Of a stretch of 64,000 nt of DNA, positions 49,298 through 63,579 are shown piece after piece (the stretch's first letter is position 1; every line of letters begins with the position of its first letter). A model generated the notes under the pieces. It had not been told where the DNA came from. It did not search any database and was given only the letters and a program-made list of their open reading frames with translations. This DNA is from an uncultured Phycisphaerales bacterium. Its GTDB lineage: Bacteria > Planctomycetota > Phycisphaerae > Tepidisphaerales > Tepidisphaeraceae. A program made the translations under genes and the position numbers. The stretch is taken from assembly GCA_963844715.1 (NCBI GenBank), contig CAWJPJ010000006.1:1184001-1248000 (forward strand). The letters run 5' to 3'.

Positions 49298-50371
49298 ATG
49301 ACTCAGACAGACGCTCCATACGGAAGAAAGACGCAGCGCCCATCGCCGGTGAAGGAAATCCACATCCTCTGGATCACCGCGGGCCTCGGTTGCGACGGTG
49401 ATTCGGTCTCCATCACGGCGGCAACACAGCCCAGTGTGGAAGATGTCTTGCTCGGAGCGATCCCCGGATTGCCTAAGGTGCATCTGCACAATCCCGTGCT
49501 CGCGTACGAGGTGGGGGATGAGTTCATGCAATTTTGGTATCAGGCCGAGGAGGGACGGCTCGATCCGTTCGTGCTGGTGATCGAGGGGTCCATCCCCAAC
49601 GAAAAAATCAAGGAAGAGGGATACTGGGCAGCGCTGGGAACGGATAAGAAGACCGGTCAACCGATCACCACCTGCGAATGGATCGACCGCCTGGCGCCCA
49701 AGGCGCTGGCGGTTGTGGCCTGCGGAACATGCGCCACCTATGGCGGCATTCACGCCATGGAGGGAAATCCAACCGGCTGCATGGGCCTGGCGGATTACCT
49801 GGGATGGAGTTGGAAATCCAAGGCCGGCCTCCCCATCGTCAACGTGCCCGGGTGCCCCGTGCAGCCCGACAACTTCATGGAAACGCTCCTCTATCTGCTT
49901 TATCAGGTGGCTGGACTTGCGCCGATGATTCCGCTCGACGAGCAGCTCAGGCCCAAGTGGCTGTTCGGCGCGACCGTTCACGACGGTTGCGATCGAGCGG
50001 GCTATTACGAGCAGGCGGATTTCACCAAAGAGTATGGCTCGCCCAAGTGCCTGGTGAAGATCGGGTGCTGGGGCCCCGTGGTGAATTGCAATGTTCCAAA
50101 ACGCGGCTGGATGGCGGGAATTGGCGGGTGCCCCAACGTCGGCGGCATCTGCATCGGTTGCACCATGCCCGGTTTCCCCGACAAATTCATGCCGTTCATG
50201 GACGAGCCCCCCGGGGCGGCCGTCTCCACCAAGGGTATCGCGATCTATGGCAGAACCATCCGCACCCTTCGCAGTTTCACGAATCATACGGTGAACCAGG
50301 AGCCGAAGTGGCGCCATCGCCGCCCCGCCCTCACCACCGGTTATCACCCCGTCAGTTATTCACGCCCGTAA
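49298..50371 (+). CDS. hhyS: Group 1h [NiFe]-hydrogenase small subunit
   Basis: WITAGLGCDGDS, CGTCATYGG, PGCP, HDGCDR, GCWGP, ICIGC; no Tat signal. Confidence 0.93.
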   Translation: MTQTDAPYGRKTQRPSPVKEIHILWITAGLGCDGDSVSITAATQPSVEDVLLGAIPGLPKVHLHNPVLAYEVGDEFMQFWYQAEEGRLDPFVLVIEGSIPNEKIKEEGYWAALGTDKKTGQPITTCEWIDRLAPKALAVVACGTCATYGGIHAMEGNPTGCMGLADYLGWSWKSKAGLPIVNVPGCPVQPDNFMETLLYLLYQVAGLAPMIPLDEQLRPKWLFGATVHDGCDRAGYYEQADFTKEYGSPKCLVKIGCWGPVVNCNVPKRGWMAGIGGCPNVGGICIGCTMPGFPDKFMPFMDEPPGAAVSTKGIAIYGRTIRTLRSFTNHTVNQEPKWRHRRPALTTGYHPVSYSRP

Positions 50372-50388
50372 CTTGAAAGGAATATGTC

Positions 50389-52187
50389 ATGACCACCACC
50401 GCCGCACCGGCACGAGACACTTCGACCAGCAATCGGAAACTCGTCGAGATGTCCTGGGACCCCATTACCCGCATCGTCGGGAGCCTGGGGATTTACACCA
50501 AGCTCGACTTTGAAAAAAAGGTTGTCGCCGAGTGTCACAGCACCTCTTCGATTTTCCGCGGGTACAGCATCTTTATGAAAGGCAAAGACCCGCGCGATGC
50601 GCATTTCATCACCAGCCGCATCTGCGGAATCTGCGGGGACAATCACGCGACCTGCGCCTGTTACGCGCAAAACATGGCGTTTGGAATCAAGCCCCCGGCG
50701 ATCGCCGAATGGATCGTGAATCTCGGCGAAGCGGCGGAATACATGTTCGACCACAACATATTCCAGGACAACCTGGTCGGCGTGGATTTCTGCGAGCAGA
50801 TGGTCAAGGAGACCAATCCATCCGTCTGGGCCAAAGCGCAGAAGACGGCGGCTCCGCACGCGGATATCCATCACTTTCGCACCATCGCGGACATCATGAC
50901 CTCGCTGAATCCGTTCACCGGGACTTTCTACCGCGAGGCGTTGTCGATGAGCCGGATGACGCGGGAAATGTTCTGCCTGATGGAAGGCAGGCACGTGCAT
51001 CCCTCGACGCTCTATCCGGGCGGCGTCGGGACCGTGCCGACGGTGCAGTTATTCACCGATTATCTCGTGCGCCTGATGAAATACGTCGAGTTCATGAAGA
51101 AAGTCGTGCCCATGCACGATGATCTGTTCGATTTCTTCTACCAGGCCCTCCCCGGCTACGAAAAAGTGGGCCAGCGGCGCGTCCTGCTGGGATGCTGGGG
51201 ATCGTTCAATAACCCCGACGTGTGCGACTACACCTACAAGAACATGAGCAAATGGGGCAAGGCGATGTACGTCACGCCCGGCGTAATCGTCGATGGCAAA
51301 CTCGTCACCAACGATCTGATCGACATCAATCTGAACATCCGCATCCTGCTGGGAAGTTCCTATTACGATGATTGGAACGACCAGGAGATGTTCGTCAAGG
51401 AAGATCCGCTCGGGAACCCGGTGGATCGGCGCCATCCCTGGAACCAGACCACAACGCCGCGCCCGCAGAAGCGCGATTTCAGCGACAAATACAGCTGGGT
51501 GATGTCCCCGCGCTGGTTCGACAAGCGGACGGGCGACCATCTGGCGCTCGATACCGGCGGCGGGCCGATCGCGCGGCTCTGGTCCACGGCGTTATCCGGG
51601 CTCGTCGATATCGGCTACATCAAGGCGACCGGCAGCAGCGTCAAGATCTATCTGCCCAAAACGATGTCCATGCCGGAAGTGGAATTCGAATGGAAGATCC
51701 CCAAATGGAGCAACTGCATCGAGCGCGATCGGGCCCGGACCTATTTCCAGGCGTATGCCGCCGCGGCGGCGCTTTATTTCGTCGAAAAGGCGCTGACGGA
51801 AGTACACGCGGGAAATACCAAGACCTGGACCGAGTTCAAGGTTCCGGACGAAGCGATTGCCTGCGGGTTCCATGAGGCGGTGCGCGGCGTGCTTTCGCAT
51901 CACGTCGTAATTCGCGGCGGAAAGATCGCCAACTATCACCCCTACCCCCCCACTCCCTGGAACGCGAATCCCCGCGATTCGTTTGGGACGCCGGGACCGT
52001 ACGAGGATGCAGTTCAAAACACGCCGATTTTCGAGGAAAATGGGCCGGATAAGTTCAAAGGGATCGACATCATGCTGCGCGGTGCGAAGCTTCGATCCGT
52101 GTTTGCCGTGCGGCGTGCACATGTACCTCGGTGGCGGCAAGACCCTCGAGGTCCACCATCAGCCCATGTTCGGGTCGCAGCGCGTAA
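50389..52187 (+). CDS. hhyL: Group 1h [NiFe]-hydrogenase large subunit (indel near 52078; end approximate)
   Basis: L1 TSRICGICGDNH; L2 VRSFDPCLPCGVH in the shifted frame. Confidence 0.93.
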
Positions 52188-52200
52188 ACAAGGAGCGAAG

Positions 52201-52761
52201 ATGGCCAACGCGACGGAAGACCTTCGCCTGCGCGAGCGGATCAGACGGATCGATACGCTGTTGCAGGAAATCGACAAGTTCCCCGACCCGCAGGCGAAGG
52301 GGCGCATGAGGGAAATCGTTCAGTGCGTCATGGACATGCACGGCGCCGTTTTGGAACGGATTTTCGATCAGGTCGCCGAAAGCCCCGAATCCGGAACCAC
52401 GCTGATCGATTCCCTGGCCAAGGATGACCTCATCGCGAGTTTGCTGATTTTGTACGGCTTGCATCCGCTCGATATCGAGACGCGCGTCGCCGAGGCGCTG
52501 GAAAAAGTCCGGCCGTATCTGCACTCCCACGGTGGAAACGTCGAATTGCTCGGCCTCGACGACGGCGTTGTGCGGCTGCGGCTCCAAGGAAGCTGCCACG
52601 GATGCCCCTCTTCGGCGATGACCCTCAAGAGCACCATCGAAGAGGCTATCATGGAAAAGGCGCCGGATGTGGCGGGCATTGACGTGGAGGGCCAAACCAC
52701 TGAATCGGTCGCCGGCGAGGCGGAACACAAGGGCCTGGCGCTGCCGGTGATTTCCGGGTGA
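52201..52761 (+). CDS. NifU/NfuA-like Fe-S carrier
   Basis: Own RBS aaggag; RPYLHSHGGNVE, GSCHGCPSS. Confidence 0.9.
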   Translation: MANATEDLRLRERIRRIDTLLQEIDKFPDPQAKGRMREIVQCVMDMHGAVLERIFDQVAESPESGTTLIDSLAKDDLIASLLILYGLHPLDIETRVAEALEKVRPYLHSHGGNVELLGLDDGVVRLRLQGSCHGCPSSAMTLKSTIEEAIMEKAPDVAGIDVEGQTTESVAGEAEHKGLALPVISG

Positions 52762-52768
52762 GGCGCGT

Positions 52769-53405
52769 ATGTCAATCACCGACACATCATCGCAACAACC
52801 GCTGCCAGGCCTGCGTGGCTTTGTGCGGCCGCGCAAAAATGTGGAAACCTGCGAGCTGTGCGGGGCCGCCCTTGAACGGCCGGCACCAGCACTTGCTGGA
52901 AGTGAATGCCCGTCGCCTGGTGTGCAGTTGCGATGCGTGCGCGATTTTGTTCAGCGGACGCGGCGTGCGATATCGCCGGGTGCCGCGACGGATCGAATGC
53001 CTCGAGGATTTTCGCATCACCGATGAGCAATGGGAGGGGCTGCATCTGCCGATCAATCTCGCCTTCTTTTATTTCAGCACGCCGGCGGGAAAAGTCGTCG
53101 CGATGTTTCCCAGCCCGGCCGGGGCAACCGAATCGCTTTTGACTTTGCAAACCTGGGACGAGCTGGTCGAGGCCAATCCGGTGCTCAAGGAATTGGAGCC
53201 GGATGTCGAGGCCCTGCTCGTCAATCGAGTCGGAAAAGCCCGGGATTATTGCCGGGCCCCGATCGATGAATGTTACAAACTGGTCGGGCTGATCCGAACC
53301 TATTGGCGCGGACTGTCGGGCGGCAATGAAGTATGGGAACAACTCGCCGCTTTCTTCGCGGAGGTGAGAAATAAATCCGGCTCCAAGGGAGGACCCAATG
53401 CCTGA
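52769..53405 (+). CDS. DUF5947-like hhy-associated protein (frameshift near 52872)
   Basis: CELC...HQHL...CSCDAC, FPSPAGATESLL, PIDECYKLVG. Confidence 0.8.
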
Positions 53406-54045
53406 TCTCTCGTTCGACATTTTAGGGGCTGAACCCGTGCAATTCGCGGCTTCGCCCATGATCCATTTCGCCCTCAAGGTCAAAGATGCGGAACTCGGCA
53501 AAATTCACGCCGTCGCGCTGCGATGCCAGATTCGCATCGAACCCGCGCAGCGGAGATACGACGCGGGGGAAAAAGCTCGCCTCCGCGATCTCTTTGGCGA
53601 GCCGTCCCGATGGGGACAAACCATGCGCACGATGCTCTGGGCCCATACCACGGCGGTCGTTCCCCCCTTTGAAGGGACCACGACGGTTCAACTTCCGGTC
53701 GCCTGCACCTATGATTTCAATATCGCCGCGGCGAAATACTTTTATGGATTGGATGAGGGTGAAGTCCCGCTCTGCTTCCTGTTCAGTGGAACAATCTTCT
53801 TTTCCAGCGAAGACGGAAACATGCAAATTTCCCAAATTCCGTGGGAAAAGGAGGCAAATTTCAGGCTGCCCGTGAAGGTCTGGCGGGAAATGATGGCGTT
53901 TTATTATCCGAACACCGCGTGGCTGCCGCTGCGCAAGGATGTCTTCGATCAGCTCTACGAATTCAAAACCCGCCATTCCCTCCCGACCTGGGAAGCGGCG
54001 ATGGAGAAGCTGATCGGCTCACAAATTGAACAGGTGGAAACGTGA
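53398..54045 (+). CDS. DUF6084-like hhy-associated protein
   Basis: LRCQIRIEP, DLFGEPSRWGQT, CTYDFN, YYPNTAW. Confidence 0.8.
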   Translation: MPDLSFDILGAEPVQFAASPMIHFALKVKDAELGKIHAVALRCQIRIEPAQRRYDAGEKARLRDLFGEPSRWGQTMRTMLWAHTTAVVPPFEGTTTVQLPVACTYDFNIAAAKYFYGLDEGEVPLCFLFSGTIFFSSEDGNMQISQIPWEKEANFRLPVKVWREMMAFYYPNTAWLPLRKDVFDQLYEFKTRHSLPTWEAAMEKLIGSQIEQVET

Positions 54046-55103
54046 ATCGCGGCTTCGTCGACAGAATCACCCGCGCTCTGCTTTACGAGGGATACGTTCT
54101 TTATCCGTACCGCAAGTCCGTGAAAAACTCCCATCGCTGGACGTTCGGCGGCATTTACCCCCAGGCATGGAGCAAAGCGCAAACCGGCGCCGATGCCTGG
54201 ATGATGCAGACCGAATGCCTGATCCACGGCACCGGCCGAACGCGCCTGCGGACGATCGTGCGGTTTTTGCAATTGGTCAATCGCCAGGTGGGAGAAATCG
54301 ATCCTCCGCTGGACGAACTCCCCGCCGAGGGCGAGCCCGAATATCGAACCACGCCCTCCCTGCGCATCGGCGAAAAGTTATATCAAAGCTGGCAGGAAGC
54401 CGAGGAACGAGAAGTCGATTTTGGGATGGTTCAGATCGCCGATCTGGTCCGCCAGTCCTATCGAACCTTCGTTCAATATCCGCTTCGGCGAACGATCGAG
54501 CCTCTGCGCGAAGAGTTCGGCAAGATCGCCGGACTATTGATCCGCGACCAGCGCGCCATTGAAGGCACGATCGAGATTTTCGCGGCGCCGGTCGCCGATG
54601 ATCTATTCAGGCTCACCGTCCGGATCACAAATCAAACCGAATTGCCCGATGCGCAAGACCGGAACGAGGCGCTCCTGCGATCGTTTGTATCCACGCACAC
54701 GATATTGGGAGCCGAGGAAGGAGAGTTCGTCTCCCAAACCGATCCCCTGGCAATATGGAAAACCCAATCCGCCGACTGCCGCAACCTGGGGGCTTGGCCG
54801 GTGCTGGTCGGCGAAGAAGGAACTCGCGACACGGTCTTGTCTTCCCCGATCATTTTAAGCGACTACCCGCAGCTCGCCCCCGAGAGCCCCGGCGATTTGT
54901 TCGACTCAACCGAGATCGACGAGATTCTGACCCTGCGCATTCTGACGCTGACGGACGAAGAAAAACGCGCCGCCGCCGGCATGGACGAACGCGTCCGCCA
55001 TCTGCTGGAACGAACCGAAGCGCTGGCCCGCGATCAACTGATGAATCTGCACGGAACGATTCGCGGACTAAAGCCCGTGGCCCAGGAGCAATCCAATGGA
55101 TGA
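54042..55103 (+). CDS. Conserved hhy-associated protein
   Basis: LLYEGYVLYPYR, LSSPIILSDYPQLAPESPGDLFDSTEIDEIL. Confidence 0.8.
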   Translation: MNRGFVDRITRALLYEGYVLYPYRKSVKNSHRWTFGGIYPQAWSKAQTGADAWMMQTECLIHGTGRTRLRTIVRFLQLVNRQVGEIDPPLDELPAEGEPEYRTTPSLRIGEKLYQSWQEAEEREVDFGMVQIADLVRQSYRTFVQYPLRRTIEPLREEFGKIAGLLIRDQRAIEGTIEIFAAPVADDLFRLTVRITNQTELPDAQDRNEALLRSFVSTHTILGAEEGEFVSQTDPLAIWKTQSADCRNLGAWPVLVGEEGTRDTVLSSPIILSDYPQLAPESPGDLFDSTEIDEILTLRILTLTDEEKRAAAGMDERVRHLLERTEALARDQLMNLHGTIRGLKPVAQEQSNG

Positions 55104-55422
55104 ATTCCCCTCATTTCCCGGCGATCTCCACACCGAGCGGAAACTCGACCGCGTCTTCGCGGACGGCGTCGAAATCAAACCCGGCGATCAGGTCGTCCTG
55201 CGACCCGTCGCCCGCGCCGATATTTTCGATCTCGCCCTTGAGGGCAAAGTCGCCACCGTTGTTTCCATTGAACAAGACTATGAAGACCGCATCCATCTGG
55301 CCGTCACCGTCGACCAGGACCCGGGCTGGGAACTCGGTTGCGACGGCATGATCGGCCATCGCTTTTTCTTCGGCGTGGACGAAGTCGTCCCCGCCGCCAG
55401 GCACAATGATCCACGCATTTGA
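55096..55422 (+). CDS. Conserved hhy-associated small protein
   Basis: GDQVVLRP, ADIFDLAL, HLAVTVDQDPG, HRFFFGVDEV. Confidence 0.75.
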   Translation: MDEFPSFPGDLHTERKLDRVFADGVEIKPGDQVVLRPVARADIFDLALEGKVATVVSIEQDYEDRIHLAVTVDQDPGWELGCDGMIGHRFFFGVDEVVPAARHNDPRI

Positions 55423-55438
55423 TTGGAGGTCCTTTATC

Positions 55439-55674
55439 ATGAAATCCGAGCACGAATTATCCGACGACGGCGAAACGCGTGACGTCCTCTTTTTAGCCGG
55501 CGGCGCCGCCCTGATTCTCCTGGGCACGGATTGATGATGGCGCATCCCGTCCTTCGGCGTAATGCCAAGGCTGCCCTGGCAACGTTCATGCCCGACCTGG
55601 AAGGACCCGTCAAGGCCGGCATCAAGGGGGTTATTCCCGACCTCGAGCGCTATCTCAAGCTGAAAGCGATGTAG
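55439..55674 (+). CDS. Small membrane protein, DUF6893-like (frameshift near 55528)
   Basis: RBS ggaggt; TM segment, then IPDLERYLKLKAM*. Confidence 0.65.
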
Positions 55675-55679
55675 ATCGG

Positions 55680-56249
55680 ATGTCCCCATCGACATTGGCT
55701 ACCCGTTACCTCCTCGATACATCCCGAAGCCGGTTCACCGTTCAGGCTTTCGCCTCCGGACTCCTCGCTGGCTTCGGGCACAATCCGATCTTCGTCGTCC
55801 GCGACTTTGCCGGCGAGTTGATCTTTTCCCCCGACCAACCCGGCGATTGTTCCTATTCCATGACGGTCCAGTCCCCATCCTTGCAACTCAGCGACGGCCT
55901 GACCGAGCACGAACGCCAGGAAATCCAGCGCATCGCCATGGATGAAGTTCTCGAAGTCGCCAAATATCCCGACATCGCCTTCCGCAGCACCAAAATCCTC
56001 GCGACCAACATTACGCCCGGCTGGTTCCGCGCCCAAATCAAAGGCCTGCTCCGATTGCACGGAATCATCCGCCACTTGCCCATCGACGCCCAACTCCGAT
56101 TTGCCGATCGCACCATGCAACTAAGCGGCGATTTCACGATCAATTTCCGCGACTTCAACATCAAAGCCGTCGCCGGCACCGCGGGTTTGATCAAGGTAAA
56201 GGATGAACTCAAATTCCAGTTCAACCTCCTGGGCCAGGAAAAAAGATGA
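55680..56249 (+). CDS. YceI-family lipid/polyisoprenoid-binding protein, copy 1
   Basis: VLEVAKYPDIAFRS, GLLRLHG, IKVKDEL. Confidence 0.88.
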   Translation: MSPSTLATRYLLDTSRSRFTVQAFASGLLAGFGHNPIFVVRDFAGELIFSPDQPGDCSYSMTVQSPSLQLSDGLTEHERQEIQRIAMDEVLEVAKYPDIAFRSTKILATNITPGWFRAQIKGLLRLHGIIRHLPIDAQLRFADRTMQLSGDFTINFRDFNIKAVAGTAGLIKVKDELKFQFNLLGQEKR

Positions 56250-56839
56250 GCGGTCCGCCGGCAAATCCCCTTTCCACCAGCGCAACGCGCTACGTCCTGG
56301 ACGTACCGAACAGCCGCTTCACCGTCCAGGCGTTCGCCGCCGGTTTCCTGGCGGCCTTCGCCCACAGCCCCACATTCGCCGTTCGCGATTTTTCCGGCGA
56401 ATTTCGATTTTCCCCCGACGGCGCCGGCCAATCTTCTTTTGAAATGACCGTGCAAGCCCAATCGCTCCAATTGACCGACGATGTGAAGGAAAGCGATCGG
56501 CAAGAGATTCAAAAGACCGCTCTCGACGATGTCCTCGAGGTCGGCAAGTTTCCCCAGATCTCCTTTCGCAGCGCCCAAATCGTAATCACCAAAATCACCG
56601 AAGCCTGGTATCGCGCCGAAATCCGCGGCGACATGCGCCTGCACGGAGCGACCAGGCCGCTGTCCATCGATACCCAGGTGCGCCTCGCCGAACGCGCCAT
56701 GAGAGTCAGCGGCGAATTCACCATCAAGTTCCCCGATTACCAAATTAAACGCGTCACCGGTCTGGCCGGCCTCATCAAGATCAAGGATGAGCTGAAATTC
56801 TCTTTCGATCTATCCGGCCGCCAGGAGCCAGAGGCTTAA
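56246..56839 (+). CDS. YceI-family protein, copy 2
   Basis: Clear paralogue of the preceding gene: SRFTVQAFAAG, VLEVGKFPQISFRS, IKIKDELKF. Confidence 0.88.
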   Translation: MSGPPANPLSTSATRYVLDVPNSRFTVQAFAAGFLAAFAHSPTFAVRDFSGEFRFSPDGAGQSSFEMTVQAQSLQLTDDVKESDRQEIQKTALDDVLEVGKFPQISFRSAQIVITKITEAWYRAEIRGDMRLHGATRPLSIDTQVRLAERAMRVSGEFTIKFPDYQIKRVTGLAGLIKIKDELKFSFDLSGRQEPEA

Positions 56840-56842
56840 ATC

Positions 56843-57388
56843 ATGTCCCCTCCCCGCATTCTCATCGCCGGCATCGGCAACATTTTCCTCGGCGACGACG
56901 CCTTCGGTGTAGAAGTCGCGCAAAAACTCGCCAAACGTAAGATGCCCGAGGGCGTATGCGTCACTGACTTCGGAATCCGCGGCCTCGATCTGGCATACTC
57001 GTTGCTTGATGAACATGCCATGGTCGTCCTCATCGATGCAGTCTCACGCGGCAATGCGCCCGGCACGCTTTATCTCATCGAGCCCGACATTTCGTCGCTT
57101 CAGTCCGGCGATCAGCCCCTCACTCTCGACGCCCACGGCATGCATCCCGAAAAAGTCCTGCGCCATGCCGCCTCGATGGGCGCCAAGTTCGGCCGTGTCC
57201 TCCTGGTCGGATGCGAGCCCACCCCATTCAATCCCGACCTGGACATGCAGATGGACTTGAGCGAGCCCGTCCGCGCCGCCGTCGATGAGGCGGTCCAAAT
57301 GGTCGAATCACTCGTGTCAGATTTTTTGAACAATCGACATTTCGCCGGCGCCCCCAACGCAGGCGCGGCGAAGTCGAACTTTTCCTAA
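56843..57388 (+). CDS. Hydrogenase maturation endopeptidase (HyaD/HybD family)
   Basis: AGIGNIFLGDDAFG, LIDAV, DAHGMHP, VGCEP. Confidence 0.93.
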   Translation: MSPPRILIAGIGNIFLGDDAFGVEVAQKLAKRKMPEGVCVTDFGIRGLDLAYSLLDEHAMVVLIDAVSRGNAPGTLYLIEPDISSLQSGDQPLTLDAHGMHPEKVLRHAASMGAKFGRVLLVGCEPTPFNPDLDMQMDLSEPVRAAVDEAVQMVESLVSDFLNNRHFAGAPNAGAAKSNFS

Positions 57389-58519: not shown

Positions 58520-59523
58520 ATGTCAACTCTCAATGCGTCAAAAAGTCCCACACTCGCCCCTCCTCTAGCCGACGAATCCCTCTATTGGGCCGCCGTGCGC
58601 CCGCGCAAAATTGTCATGCGCAAAATGCTCGCCGGCCTTTTCTGGCGAGCCCTCAATCCCATCCATCTCCTAAAAGCCGCGCACCTCCACTGCAATCGCA
58701 AGGCCAACCGCCACGCCTTCGTCGACGCTCAACTCGCCCTCGTCACCAAAATTCTCCCCAGCGATTTTCTTCACTACGGCTACTTCGACGACCCCGACCT
58801 CATCCCCGAGGAAATGAAACTCGCCGACATCTCGCGCGCCCAGCTCCGCTACGCCGAACTCCTCATCGACCAGATGACCAACCCCAACGATCCTGTCCTC
58901 GACGTCGGCTGCGGCATGGGCGGAATCTCCCGCCTGCTCCACAAACGTGGCTTCACCCCCACCGCACTCACCCCCGACCGCGTCCAGGCCGCTCACATCG
59001 CCGCCACGCACCCCGGCGTCCCCCTCGTTCGCTGCAAACTCGAGCGCCTCCCCGTCGCCGACCACGCCCAAAATATGGCACCGTCCTCACCTCCGAATCC
59101 TTACAATATTTGCGGCTCGACAAATCCCTCCCCATCATCGACGCCATCCTAAAACCCGGCGGCCGCTGGATCGCCGCCGATTATTTCCAGCGCCACGCCA
59201 GCGACGACAACACCTGCCACAACTGGGAAGAATTTCAAACCCTCCTCCCCCGCCACGGCTGGCGAATCGCCCACCAACGCGACATCTCCAAAAACGTCCT
59301 CCCCATGCTCGCCTACGTGAACATGTGGTCCAACCGAGCCTTCCGCCCCGCGGCACACATGACCCAACTCCGCCTCCAACGCAAACAACCCGGCCTGCAT
59401 TATCTACTCGAAGGCGTCATTACCTATCTGAACGATTTCCTGGACAATAACCTGGACCGCGTAGACCCGGCTTGGTTCCTACGACACAGGCTGTATATGA
59501 TGTTAGTCATAGAACGCGCCTGA
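58520..59523 (+). CDS. SAM-dependent methyltransferase (sterol/tocopherol MT-like; frameshift near 59070)
   Basis: FLHYGYF, VLDVGCGMGG, ESLQY, LKPGGRW. Confidence 0.85.
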
Positions 59524-59797
59524 AGACCCCCGCATCGTCTACTCTCTACTTGCTACCCTCGACTTTCTCGCGCAGCTCCGTATGACGGTAGTGATTGAGC
59601 GAGCCTGAAAACCCCCAGGATCGACGACGCCCCCTTGCGAGCGTCGCGAATCGAACCGCCGGGCGTGACGCACTCAACCGTGCCCCAATTTATAGAAGGG
59701 CCTGCGTTGCGGCTAGACGGGCTGGCCGCAACCTCGCGTTCGAGAACACTCTTCCGTATAATTTGATTGTACTTGCCTTAACTTAAGGACCCTTCCA

Positions 59798-60940
59798 ATG
59801 AGTAATCCGTCGCGGCGGGAACGCACCCAACTTCGGCGACTAATCGAAGATTCATTGCGGCGACAGGGCTTTAAGGTCCGAGACGACCAAATCGTCGTTT
59901 CAAAAAGAGCGGGCAAGCGCAAACTCCGTAGCCTACACCACCTTTCCGTGCAACACCGCGTCGACGATGCGCGGTGCCGGCTCGGGCGCTATGAAAGCGA
60001 CCTGATTCAGCGCATCGCGTCGGGGTCTGAGGTGCAACCAGATCGGATATCCCCGAGACTCGTAGAAGTACTCCCGGAATCGGAGAACGAACTTCTTTTT
60101 CGTTTTGCCAGCCTGCATTGGAGCATTCCCACGTCATCCGGTTATGGTCGAAGACTACGCTTCCTTGTCGAAGACGCGAGCAATGGAAAATTGATAGGGC
60201 TTTTCGGCCTTTGCGATCCAGTCTTCAGTGTCGCAGCGCGCGATGCGTGGGTCGGTTGGGATTTACAGACGCGCAAAGCGCGATTACGCAACGTGATGGA
60301 GGCCTTTATTCTGGGGGCGGTCCCGCCGTATTCGATGCTCCTTGCGGGGAAGCTTATCGCCATGCTGTGTTGCAGCGAGGAAGTGCGACAGGCGTTTCGC
60401 CGCAAATACAGCCGTGGTGAATCTCTGATCGCGAATGGCGCCGCGGACGGCCGATTAGCGATGCTCGCCACGACCTCTGCACTCGGCCGCTCATCCGTAT
60501 ACAACCGCGTTAGGTTCGGTGAACGGCTTTTGATGGTTCCCGTGGGATACACCAGCGGGTGGGGTGAGTTCCAGTTCACCGACGGAGCTTACTCGCGGCT
60601 GCGCGAATACGCCGAGGATTACTGTGATAAAACAGCGAAGCACAAATCATGGGGCACGGGTTTTCGCAATCGACGCGAGGTCGTCCGCCGCGTTCTGGCA
60701 CATGTTGGGCTTTCGACGCAGTTGATGAACCACGGAATCCGCCGCCAATTGTTCGTGATGCCGCTTGCGAAGAACACCCGAGAGTTTCTGCGAGGCGATC
60801 AAACACGTCTGCACTGGTATTGCCAATCGGCCGAGGACCTGTCAGCGTATTTCTTGCAGCGATGGCTACTTCCTCGCGCGGCCCGAAATGCGGAATATTT
60901 AAATTACTCTAATGAGTCGTTTCGGCTGTGGCCGGAATGA
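59798..60940 (+). CDS. DUF4338 / Druantia DruA-like protein
   Basis: WSIPTSSGYGRRLRFLV, ARDAWVGW, GAVPPYSMLLAGKLIAML, TTSALGRSSVYNR. Confidence 0.8.
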   Translation: MSNPSRRERTQLRRLIEDSLRRQGFKVRDDQIVVSKRAGKRKLRSLHHLSVQHRVDDARCRLGRYESDLIQRIASGSEVQPDRISPRLVEVLPESENELLFRFASLHWSIPTSSGYGRRLRFLVEDASNGKLIGLFGLCDPVFSVAARDAWVGWDLQTRKARLRNVMEAFILGAVPPYSMLLAGKLIAMLCCSEEVRQAFRRKYSRGESLIANGAADGRLAMLATTSALGRSSVYNRVRFGERLLMVPVGYTSGWGEFQFTDGAYSRLREYAEDYCDKTAKHKSWGTGFRNRREVVRRVLAHVGLSTQLMNHGIRRQLFVMPLAKNTREFLRGDQTRLHWYCQSAEDLSAYFLQRWLLPRAARNAEYLNYSNESFRLWPE

Positions 60941-60955
60941 CATGAAAGTTACGCC

Positions 60956-62070
60956 TTGGAAGCATTTGCCGATCTCCCCGATGCGCTGGTACAAGACCTT
61001 TTGGCGAAGGCTATGCCGGTAGCGGAGGGAGTTAACCGGAATCTCCGATTACTTAAAGAGGCGAAAGCCCCCTTACGTGCCGAGGCTGAGCGGCGCGGCT
61101 GGATAAGGCGAAAAGCCGACCTCGACGTTCCGCGTGAGCCATCTGTAGTCGGAATCGACGGCTCGTATCAGGTCCACCGCCTCACCGCACTCGACTTGTG
61201 CGCGGCCGCGTCGGTCGCGGTCGAAGGAACCTCGAAGGAGGTCGCCATTGGGAGAAGCCGCACCATCGAATGTGGGTCGAATGCCTCGAACACAGCAAGA
61301 ACGTAACCAATACGCTACGCGGCCTAATGATTTCGATGGAACTCGACGTGGCCGCAAAATCACCACACGACCTGGTTCTTTTGGACGGCTCGTTCATTAT
61401 TCTCCTTATCTACCTCAATCAAGGGCTAACGAGCGAGATGGAAGCTCCAAAGGTACTCCGAGATGAATTCCGAAGCCGGTGGCATGAGGAGAATGTGCTC
61501 GATCGATTTGTGACGCTGCTGGGCAGCGATCGCACCGTCGCAGTTCCCAAGTATTCCGGCCGAAATGAGTTGTCCGGTCTGCTCCAACGCAATCTGCCGG
61601 AGACCGACGGCAAGACGTTGGCGACCCTGATTCTTATGCCCGGCGAGTACACGGCACCGATGGAAATTTATCACTTTGGAAGCGAAGATCAGGAGTACCA
61701 CTTACCAAGGGGCAGTTGTCCGGAGGCGACTCAGACAATCATTAATCAGCAGCTCGCGGACATGCGCGTTGTATTTTTCCGGCCGTTCGGCTGGGCGCCC
61801 GCCGTGCGCCTGGAACTCCCGAAACCAATCGCCACGTCACTGCCGCGCTTATCTCTGGCGCTGCATGGTATTGAGAGACAGTTCTTCAGCCCTGCCGTAA
61901 TTGAGCCTTACCCGTTGTTTCTCGCGGATCGAATGGTCAAGAGTTTGGGCGCTGGTGTGTCGGTGATAGAACAAACCGTCGCCCAGCATGTCGCCGGCGA
62001 ATCCGTCGACGTTGAGACGACATTATTGTGTCTTCAAAACTACCGCACGGAAGGCGGGCGTGGAGGCTAG
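60956..62070 (+). CDS. NurA-family nuclease (frameshift near 61242)
   Basis: VVGIDGS, LVLLDGS, EPYPLFLADRMVK. Confidence 0.8.
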
Positions 62071-62076
62071 TCATCT

Positions 62077-63376
62077 ATGAGTGGGGAACACGATAAAGAC
62101 GTTGCTGTAATTGGCAGTCCGTCAAGCAATACCGAGTTGACTCTCGATTTGTTACTGGAAGCGACCGAGGAGCGGATAGTCGGTGTCGCTTACTGCGTTT
62201 CGCGCTAGTCAGAACGGGACACCCATCGTCTCCGTGGGTCAGGTCGTGGGAATCGAACTTCGAAACCGGTGGCACGAAGATTCTGTTTTTCGGAATCTCG
62301 TAAAGCGAACGGGAGAAATACCACCCATCACAAATCGACAGGATACGCGGATCGCCGACCTCGTCGTCGGGGCAACATTCCGTAAGGAAAGCGGGGGCTA
62401 CGCGCCGGAAGTTCTCGGGATGGTCCCGCCCACCGGCACCCGCGTCTTTCGGGTAGATCAACCCCTGTTGGATAGCATGCTGTCAGCGTACCAGCAGGAG
62501 ATTGTTTATTTGGGGCGGGCATACGCGAACGACATACTCTATCCGATGTGGTTCAAGCACTTTGGCAGCGGACCGGGGGGCGCGGGTGAAGCGTACCATA
62601 TCGGCGTCTTCGGAAAGACCGGTTCAGGAAAGTCCGGCTTGGCCAAAATGATGCTTTGCGCGTATGCGCAACACCCTCAGATGGGGGTTCTCATTATCGA
62701 TCCTCAGGGTGAGTTCTCGGACGAACTTCGCGGCCAGCGCCGTGGACACCAGGGTCTTGCCGTAGATCAAGTGGTCTTGGCAATGGGCCGCAAGATACAG
62801 CACTACCGCATCGTCGACTTGCAACTCGATACTTGGGACTTGTTCCAAGACCTAATAAGCGCGCGACGCTTTGTCCAAGACCGCCTCGACGTTCGAGGAG
62901 CCGAGAATGTGCCCTTAGCCGCGGAATATATGCGCGAGGGTCTTGAACGCTCGGGTACTAAGCTGACTGAATTGGGGAGCGAAGAGGCTTTCCGCACGGC
63001 ACTGAATAGCGTAAAAGAGCGAGCGAATAGGATCTACACGGGGGCGGCACGCGCGGCGCAACTGCAGGAACGTGTCGATTCCATTCTTGGAGCGGAATTT
63101 GAGATGACGTTCCGTGACGGTTGGTCGCCCATAGCCAATTTATTTCGGGCAGGGCAAGGGCGCAGGACGCTGTATGGAATCGTTGGGGATTTGATTCAAA
63201 GCGAAGGATCAGGCGCCGCCCGTCCCGTAGTTGTGATTGATATATCTGAGGAAGGAAATCCCAACCTTTGGGCCGAGGAAATTGAGCTCAGGGTTATGGC
63301 GAGACTGCTGAATGTCCTCGTTGTTCAAGCAGCACACCGATCAAGGCGATTCGAACCAGGGACCAAGGGTTTATGA
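62077..63376 (+). CDS. HerA-like ATPase, C-terminally truncated (indel near 62185)
   Basis: HAS-like start VIGSPSSN; HIGVFGKTGSGKS; IIDPQGEF; lacks the C-terminal Walker B (xEAH) and R-finger (GRKxG) region. Confidence 0.82.
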
Positions 63377-63384
63377 GACCCCTG
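63348..63384 (-). tRNA. tRNA(CAT; Met/Ile2) fragment, att-site-like scar, not a complete gene
   Basis: Minus strand: CAGGGGT-CTCATAA-ACCCT-TGGTC-CCTGG-TTCGAATC, i.e. anticodon arm, variable loop and the 5' T-stem with T-loop. Confidence 0.8.
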
Positions 63385-63579
63385 AACGCTATTCACAACA
63401 ATATGGAGAAACAACAACTTGCACGGAGCCCCGGAGATTGCTTGTCACCTGACTTGTCACTGATTCTGCGAAAACACCCCGAACTGGCTGGATTCATTCA
63501 GGCATGGCCGAAATTGTCTGAGGTGGTCCGAGTGGGCATTTTGGCAATGGTGAACGCGTCGAAGGTCGGATGTTCATAG
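63373..63579 (+). mobile_element. Small ORF resembling those at the ends of planctomycete integrative elements
   Basis: PELAGFIQAWPKLSEVVRVGILAMV directly after the tRNA fragment; family association recalled, not searched. Confidence 0.5.

Follow-up and report, generated by a model that had tools for sequence, protein, structure and literature searches.

A broken and possibly restriction-modification-like druA-nurA-herA cassette in a Phycisphaerales genome

Why would a gene for DruA, a protein known from the defence system Druantia, stand directly before genes for the nuclease NurA and the motor ATPase HerA? The question is raised by a stretch of 64,000 nucleotides, here called the window, from an uncultured Phycisphaerales bacterium (GenBank assembly GCA_963844715.1, contig CAWJPJ010000006.1, positions 1,184,001 to 1,248,000), in which an original prediction, made from the letters alone, had seen a candidate anti-phage operon. 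To our knowledge DruA has been without an assigned function since Druantia was described. We put the odds at about even (roughly 0.5) that the cassette, of which the window has a broken copy, resembles a restriction-modification system: DruA would mark the host's own DNA, and DNA without the mark would be degraded by NurA-HerA from its free ends. That the cassette serves defence of some kind is quite probable. All of its parts belong to known families, and systems that join a modification to a nuclease and a motor exist; what is new is the combination of genes, which is uncatalogued. The enzyme behind the adenine signal reported for Druantia type I is unnamed, and a 4-kb cassette of three genes, with two well-understood partners, offers a small setting for the question of whether DruA modifies DNA.

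A conserved and patchily spread trio

Searches with hidden Markov models bear out the proposed domains. The window's DruA matches the Pfam family DruA (PF14236, DUF4338) with an E-value of 4e-107 and the PADLOC profile DruA1 with 1e-112, its best relatives being from Tepidisphaeraceae, Gemmatales and Isosphaera, and its HerA matches DUF87 (E = 1e-13). The 3' part of the window's nurA falls just short of the Pfam NurA cut-off (E = 3e-4), and NurA is instead identified by an intact relative, locus L001 (proteins of 382, 373 and 589 residues), which passes it (E = 1e-7) and which provides the residue numbering used below. A search of the Protein Data Bank (PDB) with the single NurA protein gave no match. 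The model of L001 NurA, with a predicted local distance difference test score (pLDDT) of 89.5, is closest to NurA of S. solfataricus (PDB ID: 2ygk; Z 21.3, root-mean-square deviation (rmsd) 4.5 over 297 residues), followed by that of T. kodakarensis (Z 15.8), chain G of the TdpAB complex (PDB ID: 8wet; Z 12.6) and that of Deinococcus (Z 12.2), which would place the trio nuclease closer to archaeal NurA than to TdpB.

We looked for the same arrangement elsewhere in two scans. A scan of GTDB genomes anchored on HerA gave 72 loci, of which six were too short and 66 testable; druA adjoins nurA-herA in 55 of these, lying upstream of nurA in 53 (twice with one gene between) and after herA in two, and it is lacking in 11. 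DUF4338 does therefore co-occur with this NurA-HerA clade, being present in 38 of the 39 testable loci with at least 53% HerA identity and in 17 of the 27 below. The titles of all 72 loci name members of Planctomycetota, Acidobacteriota, Verrucomicrobiota, Chloroflexota, Armatimonadota, Desulfobacterota, Nitrospirota, Actinomycetota, Bacillota, Spirochaetota and archaea. A second scan, anchored on DruA in metagenomes, covered the best 80 of 402 matches and is tilted to close relatives; nurA stands next to druA in 63 of its 73 testable loci, seven having been too short. No constant fourth gene was found among the trio neighbourhoods. Within an even sample of 401 genomes from the host's phylum the window-type HerA occurs in two, one of them the window's host, with druA adjacent in both, and none of 30 relatives of the host has a DruA match. 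The trio is a conserved, horizontally spread unit, and its patchy distribution is unlike that of a housekeeping locus. Nor did we find it among catalogued systems: no model of PADLOC 2.0 fits NurA and its HerA models do so poorly (at best 54 bits, on a full-length relative), and a literature search that included DruA-Mom and NurA-Druantia links, with supplements and the primary Mom, Druantia and TdpABC papers outside its range, returned no description of the gene order.

The NurA and HerA proteins of full copies look active, as judged from their residues. Across 81 dereplicated full trios, D68, E130, D145 and D327 of NurA are kept in every case, as are K185, D446, E447 and R475 of HerA, its Walker and arginine-finger residues. 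The nuclease has the RNase H-like fold of the NurA family together with its acidic residues, and in all 81 trios the DUF87 domain of HerA is complete with both Walker motifs and the arginine finger; in the window copy nurA is frameshifted and Walker A alone is left of these HerA motifs.

Within the trio, NurA and HerA evolve together, and DruA has been swapped between divergent NurA-HerA pairs. Over the 3240 pairs of the 81 trios the Spearman correlation of pairwise identities is 0.86 for NurA with HerA, and 0.22 and 0.24 for DruA with NurA and with HerA. When DruA is more than 70% identical, NurA is below 45% in 60 of 228 pairs; when NurA is more than 70% identical, HerA is below 45% in none of 294. 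Because such pairs are not independent, the exchange was tested on trees, with NurA partners divided into those above and those below 50% identity to L001. On a DruA tree of 44 rows the partner label switches 11 times, a total no lower than with shuffled labels; strong branches force eight or more of the switches, and a single DruA clade for one partner type is rejected by the approximately unbiased (AU) test (p = 1e-54, 25 rows). Since DruA stays at its position in the operon and yet has been swapped between partners only 35-40% alike, it more likely acts through a shared substrate, DNA, than in a fixed complex. The distinct defence module that the original prediction proposed, with DruA coupled to an end-degrading machine, is thus real as a conserved trio; the coupling looks loose, given the exchange, and anti-phage activity is something that we infer.

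The same loci gave several further observations. Close relatives of trio DruA at L091, L121 and L124 (for example L121:7740-13688), L141, L152-L154 and L163-L164 head another operon, consisting of DruA, at three of the loci also ThyX, then a kinase-ORC/CDC6-like ATPase and a protein with CARF repeats, which may be a second unnamed DruA system; on the tree the DruA proteins of these kinase-CARF loci are placed among those of the trio. That the DruA of Druantia type I arose from the trio could not be established: its placement among trio DruA has an approximate likelihood ratio support (SH-aLRT) of 90, and monophyly of trio DruA is not rejected (AU p = 0.17). A protein of 340-390 residues without a Pfam, PADLOC or Atlas family lies in or beside druA operons at about nine loci (L006:7822-8871, L011:7821-8855, L012:11667-12788, L069:1436-2518 and L141:2267-3289 are examples), and the ESM Atlas gave no family for the 345-residue gene that often accompanies druA. 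At L100:1409-2422 the gene between druA and herA is not nurA but an open reading frame (ORF) of 338 codons that matches no Pfam family.

A possible marking role for DruA

How might such a cassette work? DruA, which has a predicted GNAT fold and may be a remote relative of Mom of phage Mu, would attach an acyl or aminoacyl group to DNA, most probably to adenine bases, and the mark would block or slow the HerA motor, leaving phage or plasmid DNA as the presumable target. We hold this marking role for DruA to be about as probable as the reading of the cassette as a whole. A bolder form of it we offer only tentatively: DruA, as a Mom-related enzyme of cells, would put a new acyl or aminoacyl mark on adenine and be a portable self-marking module, serving NurA-HerA and the DruBCDE of Druantia type I alike; the trio would then be a restriction system that combines a GNAT mark with a repurposed archaeal-type end-processing machine, the motor of which would read the mark.

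The fold of DruA is consistent with such an activity. The model of the window protein (pLDDT 83) has a GNAT core, and the top 50 matches of a fold search are GNAT-type acyltransferases, with GNAT matches at Z 7-9; Rakesh et al. (PMC10853773) also call DUF4338 a GNAT. Trio DruA proteins share the invariant residues R120, R150, D151, K187, T227, S229 and Y237. A search of PDB sequences with the DruA profile gave no match, and the ESM Atlas gave a lead of 0.81 from DruA to a phage GNAT-like cluster and nothing further. The fold search also matched DruA-like proteins in giant-virus entries.

The only link from DruA to Mom itself is a weak one, by way of relatives carried on transposons. Fusion of a DUF4338 domain to a Tn5-type transposase was confirmed in three cases (L328:1207-3519, L334:690-2999 and L347:22-2259), with several copies per genome. 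The profile of these transposon-associated domains scores 98.5% against the window DruA, and its alignment with Mom-like proteins brings HY, R, S, D and Y motifs together. Individual domains match Pfam Mom (PF25680) with E-values of 0.002 and 0.007. At E < 10 the profile picks up 57 of the 77 Mom-like proteins, though not one at E < 0.001, and among controls it reached none of 16 ordinary GNATs and seven unrelated ORFs among 10,713 decoys.

Viral relatives also point towards DNA. DruA-like genes with 23-29% identity occur in replication modules at 70 viral loci (L165-L234, for example L189:7788-9002), from large aquatic phages that look related and may represent one event. Their neighbours, whose clusters took their family names from one or two members each, include a clamp loader at 48 loci, a sliding clamp at 47, a glycosyltransferase-like gene at 42, a polymerase at 40, NMAD1 at 20 and a Mom-like gene at 17. 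Two closer viral DruA copies lie near PAPS-reductase and ParB genes.

A further hint comes from Druantia. A kinetic call of N6-methyladenine (m6A) could conceal a larger group on N6. According to a preprint (10.1101/2024.04.14.589459), a PacBio m6A call at CAGCTGNC appears only in cells expressing Druantia type I.

A pair that protects and cuts would, lastly, be expected to decay in a way that spares druA, though numbers are small here and sampling is biased. Among 91 fully spanned loci 82 are intact, seven have an intact druA with a broken nurA or herA, two are broken on both sides and none is broken in druA alone; flags at L010, L038, L101 and L128 proved to be terminal stops and were dropped, and L119 was excluded. 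The window copy, with its intact druA and broken nurA and herA, fits this pattern. Neighbours were counted by hand for the 66 trio loci that have 2.5 kb or more of flank on at least one side (124 neighbours listed, 100 scanned, the rest assigned from other evidence or left unassigned, with no background rate): the nearest is a restriction-modification or Hma gene at 17, toxin-antitoxin-like at five and a mobile-element gene at three.

Several results weigh against the marking reading. The first group concerns DruA and Mom. Mom appears in the fold search at Z 8.4 (rmsd 3.8, 161 residues), tied with other GNATs. When their profiles are compared directly, trio DruA and Mom-like proteins show no significant match (0.6-1.4%, under the 4.9% of an ordinary GNAT control); the window DruA has no direct match to Pfam Mom, and even the transposon-borne profile gives a weak 6% (E = 0.006) against Mom-like proteins. 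As we read the alignments, trio DruA is without equivalents of the Mom catalytic residues R111 and D149. The preprint on the adenine signal names no enzyme and does not assign the mark to DruA, and Rakesh et al. read a DUF4338 domain fused to DndF as a possible suicidal co-effector acting on proteins (PMC10853773).

The second group concerns the loci. About 41 of the 66 flanked loci lie between housekeeping or uncharacterised genes and have none of the neighbours counted above, again without a background rate. The decay pattern is not significant, the five single-gene breaks at HerA-anchored loci giving a p of about 0.2, and it carries a bias from the way in which loci were found; L134 combines a shifted druA with an intact nurA, its herA being cut by the contig end. 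A Dehalococcoidia clade of ten loci has intact NurA and HerA residues, and the nine with enough flank are without druA; L013 (NurA and HerA residues intact) and the archaeal L072 (NurA residues intact) also have none nearby. DruA was found neither in the four Dehalococcoidia genomes searched nor in that of L013. Because the Dehalococcoidia clade keeps its residues intact, the NurA-HerA family can be tolerated without DruA. This clade may have shifted to repair, or NurA-HerA may be safe since a chromosome is without free ends, with DruA doing another job. The members of the druA-less clade (L040, L043, L045-L047, L049, L051, L052, L056 and L057) share a chromosomal place and are possibly a domesticated form; and at L013, the single close locus lacking druA, an ordinary GNAT gene (L013:3450-4454) lies on the opposite strand just upstream of nurA, which may be chance.

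A doubtful but serious alternative keeps the cassette in defence and takes the marking from DruA: NurA-HerA would attack linear ends alone, and DruA would acylate a protein or a tRNA, as a second-line toxin or as a switch on the nuclease. The clade in which NurA-HerA persists alone, the DruA genes beside kinase-ATPase-CARF genes with or without ThyX, the reading of the DndF fusion and the presence of GNAT toxins such as TacT3 (Z 7.4) among the fold matches all speak for it. The carriage of DruA relatives in phage replication modules and with transposases, however, fits action on DNA better; decayed copies that keep druA intact are harder to reconcile with a toxin; and exchange among NurA-HerA pairs 35-40% alike disfavours a specific protein target in a complex. 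HerA-NurA of T. kodakarensis, for which an antiviral role has been suggested, cuts both strands from any end (PMC12977600), and this fits both views alike.

It is improbable that the cassette is a helper of DNA donation or mobility, in which NurA-HerA would process and pump the cuts of neighbouring restriction-modification systems. The model here is the Thermus ICEth1 operon (restriction enzyme, NurA, TdtA and methylase), where transjugation requires NurA and the HerA-like TdtA (PMC5365140); a type III Res gene does lie directly upstream in ten of the 66 flanked loci, and L001 lies within a recombinase-bearing element. Yet the conserved neighbours of the 163 clustered loci include no gene for an integrase, for competence or for conjugation, most copies have no restriction-modification neighbour, and the tie to DruA is left unexplained. 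We give still less credit to a selfish addiction module, with DruA protecting and NurA-HerA killing cells that lose the cassette, phage defence being incidental or absent: the cassette is compact, mobile and often alone amid housekeeping genes, and its decay spares druA, but intact NurA-HerA exists without DruA, and the position beside restriction-modification and Hma systems recurs. Least probable of all is that the locus repairs double-strand breaks like the NurA-HerA loci of archaea and that druA is a passenger in it, which the likeness of the nuclease model to archaeal NurA, the NurA-HerA pair before an Mre11-like gene at archaeal L072 (the only locus with such a neighbour, and one without druA) and the flanking genes shared, as by inherited genes, in the druA-less Dehalococcoidia clade would favour, and against which stand the rarity of the cassette in the phylum (two of 401 genomes, and DruA in none of the host's 30 relatives), the finding that mre11 and rad50 are not conserved neighbours of trio loci, and the retention of druA beside both NurA-HerA types despite swapping.

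Were the marking reading true, it would add a new bacterial DNA mark and a new restriction logic, give a reason for the carriage of the DruA domain by phages and transposons, and be direct evidence of NurA-HerA in immunity. The window copy being dead, its value lies in its intact relatives.

The broken copy in the window

The cassette was predicted as three tightly packed genes in one orientation, and so it is, with gaps of 15 bp between druA and nurA and 6 bp between nurA and herA (Table 1). Its codon style, described as foreign to the host, is indeed shifted, though moderately: the GC content at third codon positions is 0.60-0.65 against a genome median of 0.72, and the codon adaptation index lies in the lowest 7-13% among 1609 long ORFs of the genome. 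The TATAAT noted upstream of druA is present; a sigma-70 promoter scan gave no sites against 1.9 expected by chance, so we treat it merely as a hexamer and not as a scored promoter.

Table 1. Features of the cassette and its surroundings, in window positions
Feature	Position	Strand	Remarks
TATAAT hexamer	59757-59762	+	possible -10 box, without -35 partner; sequence reading
druA-nurA-herA cassette	59798-63347	+	on contig C6; host assembly 85% complete; flanked by two hydrogenase-related regions
druA (DUF4338)	59798-60940	+	380 residues, intact; GNAT fold predicted
nurA	60956-62070	+	TTG start as in close relatives; split by 4-base loss near 61243
herA	62077-63347	+	ATG start; covers residues 1-430 of about 589, with Walker A but without Walker B or the C-terminal part
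Partial tRNA-Met(CAT) copy	63348-63384	-	37 bp, anticodon arm to T loop; starts exactly where herA ends
68-residue ORF	63373-63579	+	three relatives elsewhere in genome (tblastn; C3, C5, C6); no Pfam or NCBIfam family

DruA is the only intact protein of this copy, which is almost surely dead, as it cannot make a full NurA or HerA. Inactivity through a truncated herA had been suspected rightly, and understated, since nurA is broken too. The two frames of nurA match L001 NurA at 73% and 85%, and at the break the window has 4 bases fewer than six relatives. We compared the window letters with contigs of four short-read runs (X1-X4), of which X2 and X4 belong to the same study and are possibly not independent of the assembly. 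The nurA break looks real, because contigs from both X1 and X3 that span it read as the window does. herA has a second break, a frameshift at 62186, which is likely an assembly error because one X1 contig is without that base; this is the only break that a contig contradicts, and the idea that all breaks are sequencing errors was therefore rejected.

Walker B is absent from the window's herA because the match covers just residues 1-430 of a 589-residue relative. The piece of tRNA-Met that follows is 100% identical to positions 47420-47456 of contig C1 of the host genome (G000), inside a tRNA-Met gene, and is likely the remnant of an att site. Contigs of X2 and X4 bridge herA into this piece; the sequence beyond it differs between runs, and that of X1 and X2 is absent from the assembly. 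The remainder of herA had no match in the 85% complete host genome, whose contig C6 ends 9 kb past the window, and the idea that it lies elsewhere in that genome is thus not supported. The 68-residue ORF is likely the end of an integrative element, outside the cassette. A genome of the same genus has the upstream methyltransferase gene followed by other genes, and a feoB region near a full tRNA-Met. The cassette may thus have arrived near a tRNA-Met integration site and later been cut by a rearrangement. Within herA, the stretch at 62780-63330 is a mosaic, with 71-74% identity to L149, L032 and L033 and far lower identity to the loci that are closest elsewhere; it is also the most variable part of the HerA family.

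The surroundings hold two hydrogenase clusters with nickel and iron transport genes, named from their translations, one at 49298-57388 of the window and one on C6 beyond 63600. Many genes of these regions are frameshifted, and the shift in a methyltransferase gene at 59069 is absent from one short-read contig. Elsewhere on the contig an array of 24 tRNA genes occupies 3.5 kb (G000:C6:952626-956065).

Comparison with known systems

The trio shares the PF14236 DruA family with Druantia type I, which consists of DruABCDE (Doron et al. 2018, per PMC7251935). With annotated DruA proteins of plasmids the window's DruA shares 35-40% identity, and two of these plasmid proteins stand first in long operons whose last gene encodes a helicase about as large as DruE. 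The trio differs in having no DruB-E, as had been noted from the sequence, and in having NurA-HerA in place of the DruE helicase (DUF1998) as its effector: tblastn with DruB-E of P. putida (L237) found no match in the 85% complete host genome and, among 236 loci, matched only L068, which has no druA in view.

Phage Mu Mom (PF25680; PDB ID: 8bv8; PMC13219725) resembles DruA in its GNAT fold and, at the level of motifs, through the transposon-associated DUF4338 domains. There is no significant direct match, and DruA has about 380 residues and invariant residues of its own; Mom protects phage DNA, whereas the druA of the trio is a cellular gene.

NurA-HerA pairs of archaea and Deinococcus (PDB IDs: 2ygk, 9x1l, 7f6d) have the same fold and acidic catalytic residues, and in this family a ring of HerA drives double-stranded DNA into a dimer of NurA, which cleaves the two strands (PMC12977600). 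The trio loci differ in lacking mre11 and rad50 and in being mobile, patchy and tied to druA. The tdtA operon of ICEth1 likewise has nurA directly before a gene for a HerA-family ATPase, in a mobile unit with restriction-modification genes; its role is DNA donation, no DruA is reported for it (PMC5365140), and the likeness is one of gene layout, not of TdtA sequence.

The SIR2-HerA and DUF4297-HerA systems also have a HerA motor serving a defence effector; unlike in these, neither druA nor nurA has a SIR2 or DUF4297 match in Pfam or PADLOC. The nearest parallel in layout is TdpABC, a phosphorothioate system said to have been described by An and colleagues in 2025, which reportedly combines a modification gene, a HerA-type motor and a NurA-fold partner. 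The trio has the same pairing, TdpA being the best PDB sequence match of its HerA (E = 5e-6) and chain G of 8wet a fold match of its NurA. Its candidate modifier, however, is the GNAT-fold DUF4338 protein and not the sulfur-transfer enzyme TdpC, and no phosphorothioate-synthesis gene was found among the conserved trio neighbours. Because the TdpA match does not extend past the Walker A stretch and the fold of the nuclease lies far nearer to NurA of archaea (Z 21.3 and 15.8), TdpABC is probably an analogue of the cassette in layout and not its orthologue.

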